Sequence record: MT446421.1
Origin: Escherichia virus TH55
Length of the DNA stretch: 64,000 nucleotides
Direction: 5' to 3' (one strand)
Both the position numbers and the translations under genes were made by a program. Shown here one piece after another: positions 19,667 to 38,596 of the stretch. Numbering within the stretch: position 1 is the first letter of the stretch; each line of letters starts with the position of its first letter. The notes below the pieces were generated by a model. That model searched no databases and was not told where the DNA came from. It saw nothing but the letters and a program-made list of their open reading frames with translations.

Positions 19667-19966
19667 TTAGAAAGAACCAGAACCTTTAATTGTGTTCTGG
19701 CGACCTTTATTTTCTAATTCAGAATGGTCGATTTCGTATGCTTGTGCTACACCAAAGGCCTTTTTAACTTTAGCTAAAGAGCCTTTAGATGTGACAATAT
19801 TAAAAGTATTGCCTTTAGTAAAATCAACCAAATCCACTTGTACACCCTGTTTACCGAGGCTTGCTACAATAGCATCAACATATTGTTGGTCTAAATTGCC
19901 CTGGACTCCGATTTGAAATGCTTTGGGAGCTTTGGCTTCAGTAATAAATTCTTGATAAGTTTTCAT
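19667..19966 (-). CDS. internal-protein-like capsid-targeted protein (about 99 aa)
   Basis: Start at M14 gives N-terminus MKTYQEFITEA, the capsid targeting sequence of T4 internal proteins; early promoter 19997-20026 upstream. Confidence 0.6.
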   Translation of the reverse strand: MKTYQEFITEAKAPKAFQIGVQGNLDQQYVDAIVASLGKQGVQVDLVDFTKGNTFNIVTSKGSLAKVKKAFGVAQAYEIDHSELENKGRQNTIKGSGSF

Positions 19967-20486: not shown

Positions 20487-20756
20487 TCATTTCTTAGAGT
20501 ATTGACCCATAAGTTTAGCGATATCACCCAATTTCTGATTAAACAAATAATCCACTTCTTTGCCAGATTTATCTACAATTTGCCACTGACCATTTCCTTT
20601 GTTGCCAAAGGTCCAATCACCGACTTTAAATGAAGTTCCATTAACTTTTTTAATAGAAGTAAACTCAAAGCCTTCTTTCTTAGCTAAAAATGCCATGCGG
20701 CTTTCATCTGATTCATTTAATACAGATTCAGCCAAAAATTCTTGATACGTTTTCAT
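20487..20756 (-). CDS. internal protein II-like capsid-targeted protein
   Basis: 89 aa; N-terminal MKTYQEFLAES capsid targeting sequence; between denV and e as ipII/ipIII in T4. Confidence 0.7.
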   Translation of the reverse strand: MKTYQEFLAESVLNESDESRMAFLAKKEGFEFTSIKKVNGTSFKVGDWTFGNKGNGQWQIVDKSGKEVDYLFNQKLGDIAKLMGQYSKK

Positions 20757-29494: not shown

Positions 29495-29516
29495 AAAAAA
29501 GCCCGCAATGCGGGCT
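29495..29516 (-). terminator. rho-independent terminator
   Basis: Minus-strand RNA AGCCCGC-AUU-GCGGGCU followed by U6. Confidence 0.65.
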
Positions 29517-29517
29517 G

Positions 29518-30072
29518 TTAGTTCTTATAAAAGCGGAACGGATTTATATGAAAGGCGAGCATAGCCTTAGGGATTGGTCGGGACAGAAGGCTCTTGAGCT
29601 TCCAACCACAATAAACGCGCAGATAAAAGGTGATTCCACCGACCTTGAGATAAGGAACAGAAGCAAAAACACCCCAGGCATTATCCGTCCACATCCAGAG
29701 CCATCCGTGATGAGCTTTATCCGGGGAACCGGATTCAACATCAGGATTGCCTTTATAATGGAATTCTGAATTGCAATCACGACCGAGCTTGTGGTAAGCA
29801 AAATTGTATGCTTTGTTTCGCCAGAGCCAAGCTACTCGTTGGAAGTAAACACCTAACGGCCATTTTCGGATTTTTGACCAACGTTTGACATGACCCCGGT
29901 CACCATCAATCGGATTATCATAAGTCATCATCCAATCAAACCCGAACGGAAGTTTACCAGTCTTTTTATTATAGAATGGAACTACAAATGGAGCCAGGAT
30001 AACGGCCAGAATCATGGAGATAAAATCCAGTGGAACTAACAGAATCCAACTCAAATATTTTAACAGTTTCAT
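29518..30072 (-). CDS. membrane-anchored protein (about 184 aa)
   Basis: Start at M27 (MKLLKYLSWILLVPL...) because a terminator lies at 30095-30124 inside the longer ORF-track frame; N-terminal TM; Trp-rich. Confidence 0.5.
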   Translation of the reverse strand: MKLLKYLSWILLVPLDFISMILAVILAPFVVPFYNKKTGKLPFGFDWMMTYDNPIDGDRGHVKRWSKIRKWPLGVYFQRVAWLWRNKAYNFAYHKLGRDCNSEFHYKGNPDVESGSPDKAHHGWLWMWTDNAWGVFASVPYLKVGGITFYLRVYCGWKLKSLLSRPIPKAMLAFHINPFRFYKN

Positions 30073-30094
30073 ACGTTTCTCTTTAGTTGATTTA

Positions 30095-30124
30095 TAAAAA
30101 AGCCCCAACCTTTCGGAAGGGGCT
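30095..30124 (-). terminator. rho-independent terminator
   Basis: Minus-strand RNA AGCCCC...GGGGCU stem with internal loop followed by U6; between 30162 stop and ATG at 30072. Confidence 0.55.
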
Positions 30125-30161
30125 ATACCTTGTCGGGGTTCCACCTGCAAGGCAAGTGTTC

Positions 30162-30545
30162 TTATCCGCGAGCGAATGCCATTGCAGCGCGTTCGTTAGC
30201 ACGGTCGGTGATGTTCAAGAATTTATCACGAGCGATTTCGATTGGAGCACCAACCCAGTCAGCAGCACCATTACCTGGAGACTGTTTAGGGCGAACCATA
30301 TAAGTTGAAACTTTGGAACCGGCTAGTTTGGCACCAGGTGCCGCGGCATTTTTAACGTCTTTAGCTTTGATGCCAAACCCAGTTACGATACCCCAAGAAA
30401 CGCCATTAACTGGTTTCTTGAACATAACACGGTCACCAATTGAAACACCGGCTTTTTCTGGAGCCACTAAAGAAAATTTACCAGCTTCAGTCAGTACGGA
30501 TTCGGTGATGGTATTGCGATTTAAAAATTCTGCATATGTAAGCAT
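30162..30545 (-). CDS. putative capsid-targeted (internal-protein-like) protein (about 127 aa)
   Basis: N-terminus MLTYAEFLNRNTITE resembles CTS (MKTYQEF..E); minus-strand TATAAATA at 30576-30583; start could be 30557. Confidence 0.5.
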   Translation of the reverse strand: MLTYAEFLNRNTITESVLTEAGKFSLVAPEKAGVSIGDRVMFKKPVNGVSWGIVTGFGIKAKDVKNAAAPGAKLAGSKVSTYMVRPKQSPGNGAADWVGAPIEIARDKFLNITDRANERAAMAFARG

Positions 30546-30575
30546 TTTGTTTTCCATTATTAGGGTTGTTGTTAA

Positions 30576-30583
30576 TATTTATA
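30576..30583 (-). promoter_or_regulatory. late promoter TATAAATA
   Basis: Exact late consensus on minus strand just upstream of CTS-like gene 30162-30545. Confidence 0.5.
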
Positions 30584-30590
30584 TTCCATA

Positions 30591-30650
30591 GTACCGGATG
30601 CACCATCCGCTCGGATTTCTCATACTACCGGACGCACCGTCCGCTCTGGA
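30591..30650. repeat. tandem pair of 34-bp units each forming a 6-bp hairpin
   Basis: TACCGGATGCACCATCCGCTCGGA / TACCGGACGCACCGTCCGCTCTGGA; stems CGGATG-CAC-CATCCG and CGGACG-CAC-CGTCCG differ by a compensatory T-A to C-G change. Confidence 0.55.
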
Positions 30651-30781
30651 AAAACTCCGTAAAAGGGTGCGCCGTTTCAGCTGTGATATAAGGGGGCATC
30701 AACAAATCGTAAAGATTTATTAATGCCAGTCCTTAAACAGGGAACTTCAGTCCGACGACTTACCGGTAGCGACCCGGTTTC

Positions 30782-31021
30782 TCATTCAATTGTAATAGCT
30801 AATTTGACTTTAACAACCTTATAATTGGAATCAAGGTCATTGAATTCCATAAAATTTGTTGCTAATCTGCGAGTCGGGAAACTTAGATATTTATTATGCT
30901 CAGGTGGAGCGGTTAATGCAAACCATGGGACTTGTTTATCATTTTCATCAAACTCATCAAAGCTATAAACCAACTCGTTGTTGGTTATATCCATAACTGC
31001 ATATGATTCACTAATAACCAT
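30782..31021 (-). CDS. hypothetical acidic protein (about 79 aa)
   Basis: ORF trimmed to M16 so it does not overlap tRNA-Arg. Confidence 0.4.
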   Translation of the reverse strand: MVISESYAVMDITNNELVYSFDEFDENDKQVPWFALTAPPEHNKYLSFPTRRLATNFMEFNDLDSNYKVVKVKLAITIE

Positions 31022-31036
31022 AATATCCTCGGTAAT

Positions 31037-31113
31037 TGGTCGGGGTGGTGGGATTCTAACCCACAACCTACGGTTTAGAAGACCGTTGCTCTATACAATT
31101 GAGCTACACCCCG
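31037..31113 (-). tRNA. tRNA-Arg (anticodon UCU)
   Basis: Hand-folded cloverleaf: 7-bp acceptor CGGGGTG/CACCCCG, D-stem GCTC/GAGC, anticodon stem ACGGT/ACCGT with loop CUUCUAA, T-stem GTGGG/CCCAC, encoded CCA; T-loop is UUAGAAU (A at conserved C56 position). Confidence 0.75.
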
Positions 31114-31189
31114 GGTGGCCCCATCCGGACTTGAACCGGAAACCTGCCAGTTATGAGCCGGATGCTCTAACCAATTGAGCTACAGGGCC
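31114..31189 (-). tRNA. tRNA with CAU anticodon (Met, or Ile if lysidine-modified)
   Basis: Hand-folded: acceptor GGCCCTG/TGGGGCC (two G-U pairs), D-stem GCTC/GAGC, anticodon loop CUCAUAA, T-arm TCCGG-TTCAAGT-CCGGA; abuts tRNA-Arg with no spacer. Confidence 0.75.
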
Positions 31190-31194
31190 TAAAA

Positions 31195-31464
31195 TTAAAT
31201 TACAAATCCAGCGGGAGCATTATCATCTTTAACCATATGCTGAATTGTATGATAAGTCATTTCTTCTGGTGCAACCAGATAAGCCGCAGTGTTAACCAAC
31301 GGGATTAATTTGACTTTATTGAATGTTGAACAACCAATTGACATAAAGGTTTCGCCTGTTGGATGCTGAATTTCGCCAAATTGGCACTCATACGAAATAG
31401 AGCAACGTTTGGTAGTGGTTGTCTTTGTTTTAGGGTCGTAAAAAGCTAATTTTAATACTAACAT
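31195..31464 (-). CDS. hypothetical protein (89 aa)
   Basis: Minus-strand ORF just upstream of tRNAs. Confidence 0.4.
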   Translation of the reverse strand: MLVLKLAFYDPKTKTTTTKRCSISYECQFGEIQHPTGETFMSIGCSTFNKVKLIPLVNTAAYLVAPEEMTYHTIQHMVKDDNAPAGFVI

Positions 31465-31584
31465 AACACCTCAAATAAAATTAAGTAAAGTAAGTTTGAT
31501 TAATAGCACATGCTATTATGAAAGGTTCTTTGAGGGAAGAACCTTTGGTAATAGAGGGTACTTATTAATAATAACGCGTTTTTA

Positions 31585-32067
31585 TTAAAGCATATCAAGC
31601 GCTTTAACAGATGGGATTTGGATTTCTTCTTCGATTATATATAGCTTAACATAAGAAATTACACGCATGAAATCACCATCATTTTCACAAGCCATGCCTA
31701 AAAGTTCGGTCAGGGCTTCATTCAGGTAGTATTCTTCATCATCGCCATTTAGCAATGCATCTAAATCTTCTACACCCAGAACCTTACTTAAAAATTCATG
31801 GGTTAACTGACCAGATTTTACACCAGATGCAATGTAGTCGATAACCAAGTGTTTAACCACATCCCATTCTGAATTACCACATTTGTTGCGGTTATTGCAA
31901 TGCGAACCATAGAAAAGTTCCAGGATATATTTGTACTGTTGTATTTCTTGTTCTTCTACACCAAATACAGTCTGGGTTTTATAATTATCACCATCATTTT
32001 CCCAGGTTTCAATTTCAATCACATAACCTTTAGGGATGGTCTGACCAAATTTGATATTCATTCGCAT
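31585..32067 (-). CDS. hypothetical acidic protein (160 aa)
   Basis: Minus-strand ORF. Confidence 0.5.
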   Translation of the reverse strand: MRMNIKFGQTIPKGYVIEIETWENDGDNYKTQTVFGVEEQEIQQYKYILELFYGSHCNNRNKCGNSEWDVVKHLVIDYIASGVKSGQLTHEFLSKVLGVEDLDALLNGDDEEYYLNEALTELLGMACENDGDFMRVISYVKLYIIEEEIQIPSVKALDML

Positions 32068-32495
32068 GTTCCTTCATCAACAATAGTATGCGTATTGGCA
32101 TTAACAATCTGCCACCAGTCAAAACGGTTGGAACCATAACAAGGCTTCTTCTCGTTTTCTTTAATGATATCACGCAGTTCATCTTCAGTCGCAGCTTTTG
32201 CAATTAAGTCAGCATAACCGCCACGAGGATAATAGCTATCACCAGCAAAGAGCAAAAAGTTTGTTTTGATATTCTTGAATTCTTCAAGAGTAATAACTGT
32301 TCCACCCGGTTGAACAATATCCACATAACTATACCCTAATTCCTGGGCTTTATCTACTGCTTCAAGCAGGGTGTCATACGCCCACCCAATTTGGCAATCT
32401 GATTTTTCAGATGGATTTGCCTGATAATCCGCATACACTTTATACATTTTACTCACCTTTGGAGATTTTATCCATAACGAAAGAGATTGAACCAA
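32058..32495 (-). CDS. hypothetical protein (145 aa or shorter)
   Basis: Minus-strand ORF; start ambiguous (M1 or M17). Confidence 0.45.
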   Translation of the reverse strand: MVQSLSLWIKSPKVSKMYKVYADYQANPSEKSDCQIGWAYDTLLEAVDKAQELGYSYVDIVQPGGTVITLEEFKNIKTNFLLFAGDSYYPRGGYADLIAKAATEDELRDIIKENEKKPCYGSNRFDWWQIVNANTHTIVDEGTCE

Positions 32496-32634
32496 TTAAA
32501 AATGCAACTACTAAAGAGATTATATTCTCAGAAGTTGAAAGCATATTCAACATAAAGCCAGCAAACATGCTAAAACCAAAAACGGTAACAGCAACAAGGG
32601 CAGTAACATTTCTAATTAATTCACAACGTTTCAT
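32449..32634 (-). CDS. small membrane protein (61 aa)
   Basis: Two hydrophobic segments; early promoter 32663-32691 and SD GAGGAG. Confidence 0.45.
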   Translation of the reverse strand: MKRCELIRNVTALVAVTVFGFSMFAGFMLNMLSTSENIISLVVAFLIGSISFVMDKISKGE

Positions 32635-32662
32635 TTTATTCTCCTCAGTAGTTGATGGGATA

Positions 32663-32691
32663 ATTATACGCTATCCCATTCAAAAGTACAC
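32663..32691 (-). promoter_or_regulatory. T4-type early promoter
   Basis: Minus strand: -35 GTGTAC, 17 nt, -10 TATAAT; leader TATCCCATCAACTACTGAGGAG. Confidence 0.5.
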
Positions 32692-32946
32692 TTATTTTTT
32701 AGGGATACGATAGTAACGCATCTCAACATCTTTCTGCTTGTGCCACTTTTTGATAAGGTCTTCAGAACCTTTAATAGTAACGATGTCATAGCGACCATCA
32801 TGCGATACTTCAGCACTTAACTGCATGAAGTTGTCTAGTGAACGGCGCAATTCCTCATTAGAAAAACTACCACGCGGGGAACCAACATAAGCAAACTCAA
32901 CTTTTGCATCTGCGGCTTCGTTAATAAATTCTTGATAAGTTTTCAT
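32692..32946 (-). CDS. internal-protein-like capsid-targeted protein (84 aa)
   Basis: N-terminus MKTYQEFINEA (CTS). Confidence 0.6.
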   Translation of the reverse strand: MKTYQEFINEAADAKVEFAYVGSPRGSFSNEELRRSLDNFMQLSAEVSHDGRYDIVTIKGSEDLIKKWHKQKDVEMRYYRIPKK

Positions 32947-32971
32947 GTTGTCTCCAGTAGTTGATGAGATA

Positions 32972-33001
32972 ATTATACTGCAGTTATCCCATCGCGTATA
33001 C
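32972..33001 (-). promoter_or_regulatory. possible early promoter
   Basis: Minus strand: -10 TATAAT, -35 GTATAC at 18-nt spacing; same leader motif. Confidence 0.4.
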
Positions 33002-33002
33002 T

Positions 33003-33245
33003 TTATTTTAAGTCTTCCAGACGTTTTTTCATCTTGGTGCCATTCTTAGCAATCTCGCCGGCATCAGAACAAAGAGCAAGGAGAGCTTTAACTTTACCCT
33101 GGTCGCCTTTAAAAGATGATGCATCTACTGAATCAGCAAGTTCTTTGATACGTGCAAACAGGCGCTCTGCTTCAGCAAGGGCTTGACCAAGTTTAACTTC
33201 CATACCATGGGAAGATTCTGTTATAAATGTTTGATAAGTTTTCAT
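33003..33245 (-). CDS. internal-protein-like capsid-targeted protein (80 aa)
   Basis: N-terminus MKTYQTFITES (CTS-like). Confidence 0.6.
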   Translation of the reverse strand: MKTYQTFITESSHGMEVKLGQALAEAERLFARIKELADSVDASSFKGDQGKVKALLALCSDAGEIAKNGTKMKKRLEDLK

Positions 33246-33253
33246 TTGAAATC

Positions 33254-33526
33254 CTATTTTAGATAAATTGCATATTTTTTATAACCAGCCGTCTCATGGC
33301 GAAGACCCTTGTCATTGGCAAAACGCTCAATGTTATTAATTTGGTTCTGGTCAAGTTCTGAAATGTCAAACGCAAAAAAGTTGCGTTTGTTACCAATTGT
33401 TATATGGTCAGTTAAGTCAATGCTATACAGGTGATTGATATTGTCAATCATAGCTTTGACTGCTTTACTAATTTTTACTTCTTCATTCAGTTGTGACTCG
33501 TTGAAAAATTCATTGAAAGTTTTCAT
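33254..33526 (-). CDS. internal-protein-like capsid-targeted protein (90 aa)
   Basis: N-terminus MKTFNEFFNES (CTS-like). Confidence 0.55.
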   Translation of the reverse strand: MKTFNEFFNESQLNEEVKISKAVKAMIDNINHLYSIDLTDHITIGNKRNFFAFDISELDQNQINNIERFANDKGLRHETAGYKKYAIYLK

Positions 33527-33534
33527 AAGAAACC

Positions 33535-33867
33535 TTATTTATAAAGTTTTGCCAGTTCTTTACGTCCGCGTGCAGACATAATAAATTGTTCATCGCCAAT
33601 TTTAAAATAAGCCATACCGCCGTCAACAGCGATACCAATTTCTTTAGTACCTTCTTTGCCTTTCCACTTGCCACCAGATTTCAGGACAGCTTCAACTGCA
33701 GCTTTGGAATATTTGGACGTTTGAAAACGTTCATTACCAATCTGAAAGAAAACACCATCTGCATTTTTGGTTAAACCAAATTTCAGAGAGCCTTCACTAT
33801 CATCAATTGATTTGGTCTCATTGATGGCGGATTCGGCTAAAAACTCGTTGTAAGTTTTGATGTTCAT
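33535..33867 (-). CDS. internal-protein-like capsid-targeted protein (110 aa; position of T4 ipI)
   Basis: N-terminus MNIKTYNEFLAES (CTS-like); early promoter 33903-33931; adjacent to 57B as ipI in T4. Confidence 0.6.
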   Translation of the reverse strand: MNIKTYNEFLAESAINETKSIDDSEGSLKFGLTKNADGVFFQIGNERFQTSKYSKAAVEAVLKSGGKWKGKEGTKEIGIAVDGGMAYFKIGDEQFIMSARGRKELAKLYK

Positions 33868-33902
33868 ATTGACTCCGTTTGTTCATTCGTTGGTGTAGGA
33901 AC

Positions 33903-33931
33903 ATAATACTGCACCTACACTTATTTGTACA
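33903..33931 (-). promoter_or_regulatory. T4-type early promoter
   Basis: Minus strand: -35 TGTACA, 17 nt, -10 TATTAT; upstream of internal-protein-like cluster. Confidence 0.55.
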
Positions 33932-34622
<691 letters not shown>

Positions 34623-35981: not shown

Positions 35982-36656
35982 TTATTTTATTAATGTGTTA
36001 AGTCTTAGCTTAGTCATAAACGGATAACGTTCCAACATTGGCTTTACCCAGTATCGAGGATGCAATTCCTTTTTATATGCTAAGACCAACTCTCGAGCTT
36101 GCTCGACGGTATCAACTCCGAAGTTTTTACACATTTCTTGCCTATCTTTTTCCCACCGGCGCTTTCTCAATTCATCCTGAATCTCTTTATTTTTAAAATG
36201 ACCATTATTGCGAGAATGTTTTGTACCCTTGGTTGGACTGTAATGTCTTCCTTTGACAAACCCATCCGGAATATTTTCCCATGGAAATAGTTTTATCGAT
36301 TTGACACCATTATTAAAGTAAACTTTACCGGTTTGACTTTTAGAAATATTGTCAGCGTGTCTACGTCTTAACCAACCAAATAATTTATTATTGCGTTTCA
36401 AATACTTGCTTGACTGGCACATGGATGTAGCAGCAAAACTTAAACCTGGATTTGTAGGATATATTTTAACCAATAGTTGATGGGCTACATAATGTTCCTC
36501 AGGAGTCAAATCGACCAGATTATCTGGGTCATTTGAACCACCCATACATTTCGGAATGATGTGATGAGATTCTTTATATGAAATCAGGACCCTGTTACGG
36601 GCCCTTTCAATTAACGATGAATATATAAACTGATAATTCAAAGTGAATTTCTCCAT
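35982..36656 (-). CDS. free-standing HNH homing endonuclease
   Basis: 224 aa; HNH core [29 protein letters not shown]; inserted between genes 3 and 2. Confidence 0.75.
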
Positions 36657-37465: not shown

Positions 37466-37911
37466 CCTTTCCATCCTAATTTTTTCAGGCCGTTTTCGGT
37501 TAGAATGCGAAATGTAATACCCATTTTATCTGCGGTAGCTTGTGCAGCTTTCCACTTATCCCTGTTCACAGAATAAGTGTACATTTCGTTTATATAACGT
37601 TTCTTACTGGCTGCTGTATTATTTACAGGAATTTTTGGGGGCTGTGTTTCTTTGAATGGTTTTATTTCAATAAAAAATTGCTGGCCGGTATCAAATTTAC
37701 ACCATATATCCATATAGTAACGGCGCTTTTTGCCATCAGCATTGCTAAAATATGGAATAACAACAGTCTCAGAACCCCATTGAACAACATTGGGGTGAGT
37801 GTCGAGCCACTTGAACATATATGCCTCCCAACTCGACCTGTACTGTATTTTCTTCCAATCACCTTTATATTTTTCTAGATTTGTTGGTTTAAACTTCCCG
37901 GAGTACGCCAT
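37462..37911 (-). CDS. 4: head completion protein gp4
   Basis: About 149 aa from MAYSGKFKP (T4 gp4-like N-terminus and length). Confidence 0.75.
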
Positions 37912-38596
37912 TTTTAAGTACCTTACAATTTTCACCATGCCAACGTTTATAGTTGCCTGGATTTGTTATTTTTCCACAGTGTTCACAGGTGTGACGGGGA
38001 GCATTTTTATTAAGCTCTGATAAACGTTTTCTGACATCATCAGTAATACCTTGCTTTATTTTCTCGCTATGATTTACCAAAACTCTTTCTTTATTTGCCT
38101 TGGATATTTTTGCTCGCCAATCATCTGTAAACACTCTTTCTGATAATTTCTTACAATGTTCTTCAGAGAACTTTTTACCCTTTGCTGCTTCTGACAACTT
38201 TTTGCAATGCTCTTCAGAGCGCGGGCCATATTTCTTACCTTTAAGAGCTTTTGAAATATTTTCACATGTTTGTTTTGAACGTTTACGTCCAGTGTGAAAC
38301 TTAATGGAAGTCTCAACAGCGCGGATGCGCACCCATTCAAATTGTTTGTTATTGTAATTGTTGGAACCCATTAGAATTTTCGCAGCATGTGCTAACGAGT
38401 GATTATCTGGATAAATTTTAACCAATAACAGGTGGGCGACAAAATGTTCAGGAGCGGTAAGCTCGACTAAATTTTCATCAGTATCTAATCCGCCCATACA
38501 TCTTGGAATAATGTGATGTTTCTCTTTGTAACCATCAATGGGTGCTCGATTTTTAGCTCGTTGGATTAAGTTATTGTAATGTTTTAGATAGTTCAT
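37889..38596 (-). CDS. free-standing HNH homing endonuclease with NUMOD3-like repeats
   Basis: 235 aa; HNH core HHIIPRCMGGLDTDENLVELTAPEHFVAH; two repeats SEEHCKKLSEAAKGKK; C-terminal CxxC; minus-strand TATAAATA at 38615-38622; inserted between 4 and 53. Confidence 0.75.
   Translation of the reverse strand: MNYLKHYNNLIQRAKNRAPIDGYKEKHHIIPRCMGGLDTDENLVELTAPEHFVAHLLLVKIYPDNHSLAHAAKILMGSNNYNNKQFEWVRIRAVETSIKFHTGRKRSKQTCENISKALKGKKYGPRSEEHCKKLSEAAKGKKFSEEHCKKLSERVFTDDWRAKISKANKERVLVNHSEKIKQGITDDVRKRLSELNKNAPRHTCEHCGKITNPGNYKRWHGENCKVLKNGVLREV

Follow-up and report, generated by a model that had tools for sequence, protein, structure and literature searches.

Internal proteins of T4-like phages are small proteins made with an N-terminal leader, the capsid-targeting sequence (CTS). 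At least ten internal protein (ip) genes have been recognised by this characteristic packaging-directing signal (PMC12373910), and, according to one proposal, evolution may use the leader as a device to load diverse proteins into capsids (PMC9026906). With this combination of leader and cargo, T4-like phages can bring finished proteins into the cell ahead of their own gene expression, and the T4-type leader has also become an engineering tool for the packaging of foreign proteins. By analyzing mutants of T4 IPIII, it was found that the first 10 residues are enough for packaging and that targeting depends mostly on residues 4 and 7, while processing, in which gp21 cleaves after Glu, needs residues 8 and 10 (PMC9026906). 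Targets are known for three cargoes only, T4 Ip1, Ip2 and Ip3, each of which blocks one distinct GmrSD type IV nuclease without cross-protection (PMC12373910). A tandem array of four ip genes between 57B and tRNA.4 has been on record since the GenBank deposit of phage RB15 in 1994. Here, an array of four small genes (ipD, ipC, ipB and ipA, in the order of transcription) is described in a stretch of 64,000 nucleotides from Escherichia virus TH55 (MT446421.1), the whole of which is called the window below.

The ip array and its locus

The four genes are read here, with a probability of about 0.8, as an ip cassette array in the hypervariable ipI locus of a T-even-type Gaprivervirus phage, the products of which would be packaged, cut by gp21 and injected. 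A first-pass annotation of the same DNA had noted four consecutive small genes; a check of open reading frames (ORFs) and translations placed them on the minus strand and found the coordinates and N-termini to be exact (Table 1). The sequence around them (32400-34400) is 100% identical to that of Escherichia phage UPEC07 (MW250787.1; Straboviridae, Tevenvirinae, Gaprivervirus), and about 20 related phages share 95-99% identity with it. The gene order at the locus is trna.4-like gene, the four ORFs, 57B, 57A, gene 1, gene 3, (a homing endonuclease), gene 2 and gene 4. The surrounding order agrees with that of T4, in which a single gene, ipI, sits between trna.4 and 57B. Because the flanking 57B and Trna.4 are clear orthologues of the T4 neighbours, the four genes fill the T4 ipI slot, and all of them lie in one of the two known internal protein loci (57B-trna.4 or e-denV). 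Moreover, 57B is the anti-CBASS phosphodiesterase Acb1, and the ip array therefore adjoins another anti-defence gene. The genes for the gp21 prohead protease and for the core proteins gp22, gp67 and gp68 are annotated in the UPEC07 record at 72524-74695 and lie 0.1-1.5 kb past the end of the window.

The leaders provide the second line of evidence. By scanning the six-frame translation of the window with the motif K-[TS]-[YFW]-x-x-F-[ILMFV]-x-E, 6 matches were found, all within 3 residues of an initiating Met. In 200 dinucleotide-preserving shuffles, the mean number of matches was 0.05 and the maximum was 1. The four leader-coding segments form the largest direct-repeat family (D1) in the region 29500-34500, with a length of 38 nt, an identity of 63-74% and spacings of 299, 281 and 335 nt. 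The targeting residues defined in T4 are present in each product, as Tyr4 and Phe7 in ipA and ipB, as Phe4 and Phe7 in ipC, and as Tyr and Phe in ipD after an offset of two residues. At the leader end, the sequences INE/A (ipA), ITE/S (ipB) and LAE/S (ipD) fit the pattern of Ile or Leu at position 8 and Glu at position 10. Synteny, homology to Ip families, leader determinants and the presence of gp21 and core genes all agree with the earlier proposal that these N-termini are T4-type CTSs. The T4 leader quoted in that proposal, MKTYQEFIAE, is correct for IPII and IPIII; IPI carries a 19-residue leader, MKTFKEFTSTTTPVSTITE.

It might be supposed that the N-terminal likeness arose by chance or that the ORFs are not genes, for which the short length of the ORFs speaks and nothing more. 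The number of motif matches far above expectation, the strong PHROG matches described below, the conserved homologues in hundreds of phage genomes and the ribosome-binding sites (of the GGAG/AGGA type, 5-7 nt 5' of the ATG in all four genes) make this extremely improbable, and a chance or non-coding origin was ruled out on the basis of the shuffles and the conserved homologues.

Table 1. Positions of the ip genes, their spacers and signals, and other features of the window (-, minus strand; aa, amino acids).
Feature	Position	Strand	Description
ipA	32692..32946	-	84 aa; start MKTYQEFINEA; leader MKTYQEFINE, then A
ipB	33003..33245	-	80 aa; start MKTYQTFITES; leader MKTYQTFITE, then SSHGMEV
ipC	33254..33526	-	90 aa; start MKTFNEFFNES; leader MKTFNEFFNE, then S
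ipD	33535..33867	-	110 aa; start MNIKTYNEFLAES; leader MNIKTYNEFLAE, then S; first gene after 57B
ipD start region	33859-33867	-	ATG AAC ATC AAA...
CTS-coding segments	ipD 33832-33867; ipC 33497-33526; ipB 33216-33245; ipA 32917-32946	-	repeat family D1
57B (Acb1 anti-CBASS phosphodiesterase)	33932..34387	-	upstream flank; Pfam PF23474, E 1.2e-59; 83% identity to T4 57B
trna.4-like gene	32449..32634	-	downstream flank; 61-aa membrane protein; 66% identity to T4 Trna.4; phrog_1692
Spacer 57B-ipD	33868..33931	-	promoter-early stem-loop (PeSL)-like; sigma70-like TGTACA-17-TATTAT overlapped by hairpin, -13.9 kcal/mol
Spacer upstream of ipA	32947..33002	-	PeSL-like; TATAAT within 10-bp hairpin; repeat D6
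Spacer upstream of trna.4-like gene	32635..32691	-	PeSL-like; downstream boundary of the array; extra cassette of phage P8 inserted at its repeat
Repeat D6, two copies	32639-32669; 32948-32978		31 nt, 87% identical
Late-promoter match upstream of ipC	33536..33543	-	TATAAATA, perfect; 9 nt 5' of ipC ATG; overlaps last ipD codons
ipE	20487..20756	-	fifth CTS gene; 89 aa; MKTYQEFLAE, then S; second ip locus, directly after lysozyme gene e
ipF	19667..19966	-	sixth CTS gene; 99 aa; MKTYQEFITE, then A; after denV; phrog_2667, E 8e-43
orf131	30162..30557	-	candidate seventh internal protein; 131 aa; from Met5 (30545) MLTYAEFLNRNTITE, then S
Late promoter upstream of orf131	30576-30583		TATAAATA, perfect; 18 nt 5' of first ATG of orf131
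Homing-endonuclease ORF	35982-36656	-	HNH motif
Homing-endonuclease ORF	37889-38596	-	
tRNA genes	31037-31189	-	two, Arg-TCT and Met-CAT
ORF labelled 'holin' in UPEC07	29518-30150	-	phrog_2143

Mature parts and predicted structures

The mature parts of ipA, ipB and ipC are homologous to named Ip families, and ipD falls in an unnamed family of mostly leader-bearing proteins. ipB matches PHROG 3499 ('internal head protein', E 2e-41) and shares 82% identity with RB15 Ip5, which assigns it to the Ip5 family; likewise, ipC matches PHROG 7673 ('internal head protein', E 2e-56), shares 79% identity with RB15 Ip9 and is assigned to the Ip9 family. The length of the leader varies inside one family, the 15-residue leader of RB15 Ip5 (MKTFKEFATKTTITE) and the 10-residue leader of ipB both standing before the mature start SSHGMEV. 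ipA matches phrog_8111 ('internal virion protein', E 1.6e-15) and shows about 47% identity over 68 residues to T6-type Ip6, by which measure it is a divergent Ip6 relative. Its close copies (at least 90% identity) were found in only 14 phage records, and a word-indexed homologue search returned 3 clusters, too few for a useful structure model. The family of ipD (phrog_3966, 'unknown function'), members of which are nearly all leader-bearing, was detected in 55 phage records from several genera and adjoins 57B in some and the endolysin gene in others. Among the records listed, its members are mostly labelled 'hypothetical', with 'ipI' in two Edwardsiella phage records and 'profilin' once. PHROG calls three of the four proteins 'internal head/virion protein', and the UPEC07 record carries an internal-head-protein annotation on ipB and ipC only, ipA being a 'hypothetical protein' there.

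Past the leader, no likeness of the four proteins to T4 IPI, IPII or IPIII could be detected by sequence comparison, and the mature parts resemble none of IPI*, Ip2 and Ip3. Scans of all four proteins against Pfam and NCBIfam gave sub-threshold noise only, and sequence searches against the PDB gave no meaningful match. The first-pass annotation had described the mature parts as unrelated to each other, and this holds at the level of sequence, the best pairwise BLAST score being 18.5 bits; the profiles of the ipD and ipC families align over 17 leader columns alone. The mature products have masses of 7.5-10.7 kDa, and three of the four are basic, with an isoelectric point (pI) of 8.8-9.3.

A structure model of ipD was obtained with AlphaFold2 from a 12-sequence alignment (mean predicted local distance difference test score, pLDDT, 76.7; core 82-89), and it contains two tandem beta-beta-beta-beta-alpha units within one domain. 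The two halves are also homologous in sequence (alignment score 48, compared with 21+-4 after shuffling; none of 2000 shuffles scored as high), and ipD is predicted to be an internal tandem repeat with a Whirly/PUR-like fold. Human PURA was ranked first in a Foldseek search with the model (E 4e-3). A Pfam profile search with 12 members of the ipD family gave no meaningful match, PUR and Whirly families included, and the likeness is therefore one of fold only. ipD differs from Whirly, PUR-alpha and MRP1-MRP2 in having no Pfam match, and the confidence of its model is moderate; moreover, SsgA has the same fold as that predicted for ipD, yet does not bind nucleic acids. A search of 1.84 billion representative proteins brought up no relative of the ipD mature domain that is cellular or lacks the leader, and nothing indicates that this cargo came from a host gene.

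For ipC, the model (pLDDT 75.8) shows a small alpha-beta-beta-alpha-beta-beta domain, and ipD and ipC differ in predicted structure too. The fold search with ipC (Ip9) was also considered as a source of functional clues and was set aside, as it returned only generic two-layer alpha/beta matches (HAD cap and EpsM/PulM-like domains).

Spacers and cassette exchange

The concept of the promoter-early stem-loop (PeSL) was developed in earlier studies (PMC4122927, PMC2839356), and spacers with a partial likeness to it were observed in and around the array. All three spacers listed in Table 1 have a -10 box enclosed by a hairpin, but their -35 elements match poorly and their fold z-scores reach only -1.2 to -1.8. 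The T4 spacers upstream of ipI and trna.4 have the same design.

A survey of 28 loci from IMG/VR, found through 57B, together with reference phages, provided a view of the variation at this site. Between 0 and 5 leader-bearing ORFs follow 57B at each locus, and their mature parts fall into at least 18 sequence-distinct families. ipF-type (Ip7) genes adjoin 57B in other phages, and ipD-type genes adjoin the endolysin gene in others; to judge from these sequences, ip families move between the two loci.

Several swaps could be followed to their breakpoints. In VR26, colinearity with the window extends over ipD, ipC, ipB and the initial 46 nt of ipA; an Ip6 body follows, and the two sequences meet again at the ipA stop. 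In VR25 and VR20, the colinear stretch ends with the first 8 nt of ipB, and a different insert separates it from the ipB stop, at which colinearity resumes. In phage P8, an extra ip cassette of 73 residues is inserted at the 31-nt repeat D6. The breakpoints in these four comparisons thus coincide with gene ends, with the PeSL repeat or with leader-coding DNA, inside the segment or just after it. The array is probably diversified by such cassette exchange, with recombination in the conserved leader-coding DNA and in the PeSL-like hairpin-promoter spacers, by which mature domains would be swapped, added or removed. The mapping of breakpoints to leader-coding DNA and PeSL-like spacers is a contribution new to this analysis.

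A mosaic structure was also observed inside mature domains. The last ~35 residues of Ip9 (…NQFNNIQRFANDKGLRHE..YKKYAIYLK) are common to the 'ip7 protein' of Escherichia phage OLB35, the N-terminal part being different, a pattern that goes beyond the exchange of whole cassettes.

Further leader-bearing genes and neighbouring features

Two further CTS genes, ipE and ipF, are located at the e/denV locus, which in T4 is the second internal protein locus and holds ipIII and ipII. ipE matches phrog_8765 ('internal virion protein', E 5e-37) and also the ipD-family phrog_3966 (E 1.5e-10 over residues 1-61; hhalign probability 92%). This match is the one exception among the leader proteins to the rule of unrelated mature parts, and ipE may be a one-repeat relative of ipD. 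ipF belongs to the Ip7 family, with 49% identity to RB15 Ip7.

In addition, orf131 is a candidate for a seventh internal protein of the window. Read from Met5, its leader agrees with the start of RB15 Ip5 (MKTFKEFATKTTITES) at 9 of 16 positions, has an aromatic residue at position 4 and resembles the long-type leaders of RB15 Ip5 and T4 IPI, and a perfect late promoter precedes the gene. orf131 was found in only 15 records, which are Gaprivervirus-type and all labelled 'hypothetical', and it has no match in Pfam, PHROG or NCBIfam. It is plausible from its sequence that orf131 encodes an unannotated internal protein with a long leader.

Some other features of the region were noted. Two homing-endonuclease ORFs are inserted between the conserved genes 3, 2 and 4, where T4 has none. 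Just two tRNA genes are present, and the corresponding region of T4 contains eight tRNAs together with rnaC/rnaD and segB. The label 'holin' given in UPEC07 to one ORF looks doubtful, its sole match being a PHROG family of unknown function.

Proposed packaging and processing, and possible function

From their family membership, we infer how the four proteins would reach the host cell. Each begins with a CTS of 10-12 residues, which would bind the gp22 scaffolding core in head assembly, so that the protein is built into the prohead. gp21 would cut after the final Glu of the leader, and the predicted new N-termini are A11 (ipA), S11 (ipB), S11 or possibly E16 (ipC) and S13 (ipD). The freed mature protein would stay in the DNA-filled head, enter the cell with the DNA and act ahead of any phage gene expression. 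It is very probable, given their leaders and families, that all four are packaged and processed internal proteins. The earlier view, in which the array supplies a diversified set of proteins for packaging and injection, is supported and agreed with every test that was run, packaging and cleavage of these four being the steps that would follow from their relatives.

A number of observations weigh against this reading, and they concern the leaders, the expression signals, the virion and the possible target. The leader of ipC ends in FNE/S, with Glu at position 10 and Phe instead of Ile or Leu at the processing position 8, a place taken by Ile in nearly all of its 17 homologues; a second possible cleavage site, LNE/E (residues 13-15), follows five residues downstream. 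The leader of ipD is shifted by two residues (MNI-KTY...). The mature part of ipC is near-neutral (pI 6.8). A perfect late promoter lies directly upstream of ipC only among the four. The promoter-like sequences in the spacers before ipD and ipA resemble early signals of the sigma70 type, and ipB has none of its own; such signals would be odd for prohead components, unless late read-through supplies them. In the searchable literature, neither proteomic analyses of virions nor data on processing were found for these four families, nor anything usable on mass spectrometry of virions for Ip5, Ip6, Ip9 or phages of Gaprivervirus.

The features of ipC and ipD could be explained if one or both carried drifted relic leaders and the proteins, neither packaged nor cleaved, acted in the infected cell after ordinary expression. 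In the start region of ipD, homologues from other genera have ATG AAA... and a canonical MKTY.EFLTES; the ancestral start codon appears to have mutated to ATC, with initiation now at a new ATG two codons further upstream, and this displaces the leader by two residues in the listed Gaprivervirus-type copies. Phe at position 8 of ipC, Leu at position 7 in its VR26 copy and the PeSL-like sigma70 promoters, which suggest early expression, point in the same direction. However, the ipD leader is otherwise intact (KTYNEFLAES), and conservation over the whole protein is at least 99% in 30 records. Residues 4 and 7, the main targeting determinants, are present in both proteins, in T4 IPI, too, position 4 is Phe and position 8 is non-canonical, and it is ipC that the perfect late promoter precedes. 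Relic leaders are quite unlikely on this balance, and packaging with cleavage is preferred for ipC and ipD as for the other two.

The proteins may also be packaged and serve mainly a physical or morphogenetic role, such as neutralisation of DNA charge, head assembly, packaging speed or DNA exit. For the T4 internal proteins, about 300 copies each have been reported, together with DNA binding at low salt and, when IPIII is lost, a head assembly rate reduced by half (PMC9026906); lysines of internal proteins are also reported to touch DNA phosphates (PMC3012670). The basic charge of three of the four mature parts, the predicted Whirly/PUR-like fold of ipD, which is typical of nucleic-acid binders, and the lack of a reproducible GmrSD target for ip4-10 are consistent with such a role. 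It leaves unexplained, on the other hand, the extreme turnover of the mature domains at the surveyed loci and the strict one-to-one specificity of Ip1, Ip2 and Ip3; moreover, T4 without all three internal proteins is viable on laboratory hosts (PMC9026906), and ipC is not basic. A mainly physical role is accordingly rated unlikely.

With regard to function, the likeliest role of the injected proteins, by analogy with T4 Ip1, Ip2 and Ip3, would be that of narrow-specificity inhibitors of host defence nucleases. That inhibition of specific host defences is the main role of the four is given roughly even odds on this analogy, and GmrSD enzymes as the targets would be clearly less probable. The first-pass annotation had cited the anti-restriction activity of IPI and had pointed to GmrSD-like systems as possible targets. 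The activity stands for T4 Ip1, Ip2 and Ip3 only; when ip4-10, a set that to judge by the numbers covers Ip5, Ip6 and Ip9, were tested against representatives of 15 GmrSD groups, no inhibition could be reproduced. A GmrSD-like target is also less secure in Gaprivervirus, a genus without the hydroxymethylcytosine (hmC) pathway. According to two comparative studies, Gaprivervirus lacks dCMP hydroxymethylase and keeps dCTPase, denA, denB and alc, a combination that implies some base modification not yet described. In UPEC07 (MW250787.1, 138500-162000), the interval from imm to uvsX contains neither gene 42 nor beta-gt, that from gene 55 to gene 47 contains no alpha-gt, and dCTPase is present; the glucosyl-hmC signature expected for the class of GmrSD inhibitors is absent from these syntenic positions. 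In a genus without this pathway, a GmrSD-type target therefore cannot be assumed, and the glucosyl-hmC/GmrSD paradigm may not apply.

More tentatively, the six or seven leader-tagged proteins of the window, ipD and orf131 included, might target non-GmrSD defences of the first minute, or might act on nucleic acids themselves, for instance as a coat or a mimic of single-stranded DNA or RNA at entry. We regard this as improbable at present; if true, it would extend the internal protein system beyond anti-type-IV restriction. The Ip5, Ip6-like, Ip9 and ipD families are reasonable candidates for anti-defence screens, the appeal of which is greatest in a genus whose DNA modification is unknown. A modest residual interest lies in the untargeted cargo families, the predicted Whirly/PUR-like fold of ipD and the context of a genus without hmC.

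Comparison with known systems

Head-packaged proteins delivered with the DNA are also known from other phages, such as the Dar anti-restriction proteins of phage P1 and the ejection proteins of phiKZ/SPN3US-like jumbo phages, and in the latter the prohead protease likewise removes propeptides. Both systems differ from the present array in that their proteins and signals are unrelated and that they have no short, portable leader of 10 residues.

The spacers of the array are partly similar to the PeSL cassettes of T4-type phages (Arbiol et al. 2010; Comeau et al. 2014), which also have a -10 TATAAT or TATTAT in a hairpin, lie beside variable small ORFs and contain indel junctions inside the spacers. 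In contrast to those cassettes, the array spacers have weak -35 elements and modest fold z-scores, and their promoters are predicted.

The T4 proteins IPI (IPI*), IPII and IPIII share with the window proteins an N-terminal CTS ending in Glu, which is cut by gp21 in T4, a small size and mostly basic character, and the same two loci. Past the leader, the two sets have no detectable similarity, and whereas T4 Ip1, Ip2 and Ip3 are injected inhibitors with distinct GmrSD targets, no target is assigned to the window families.

The closest known counterpart is the array of RB15. The two arrays have in common the slot between 57B and trna.4, four tandem genes, a conserved leader with unrelated mature parts and the families Ip5 and Ip9. 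They differ in gene order, which is Ip5, Ip9, Ip7, Ip8 in RB15 and ipD-family, Ip9, Ip5, Ip6-like in the window, in the leader of the Ip5 member (15 residues in RB15, 10 in ipB) and in setting, Tequatrovirus for RB15 and Gaprivervirus for the window. An array of this type is already known, having been described in 1994, and as a discovery the present one brings nothing beyond the literature from that year onwards. What the present comparison adds to the RB15 precedent is the predicted repeat and fold of ipD, the candidate orf131, the context of a genus without hmC and the breakpoints of the cassette swaps.

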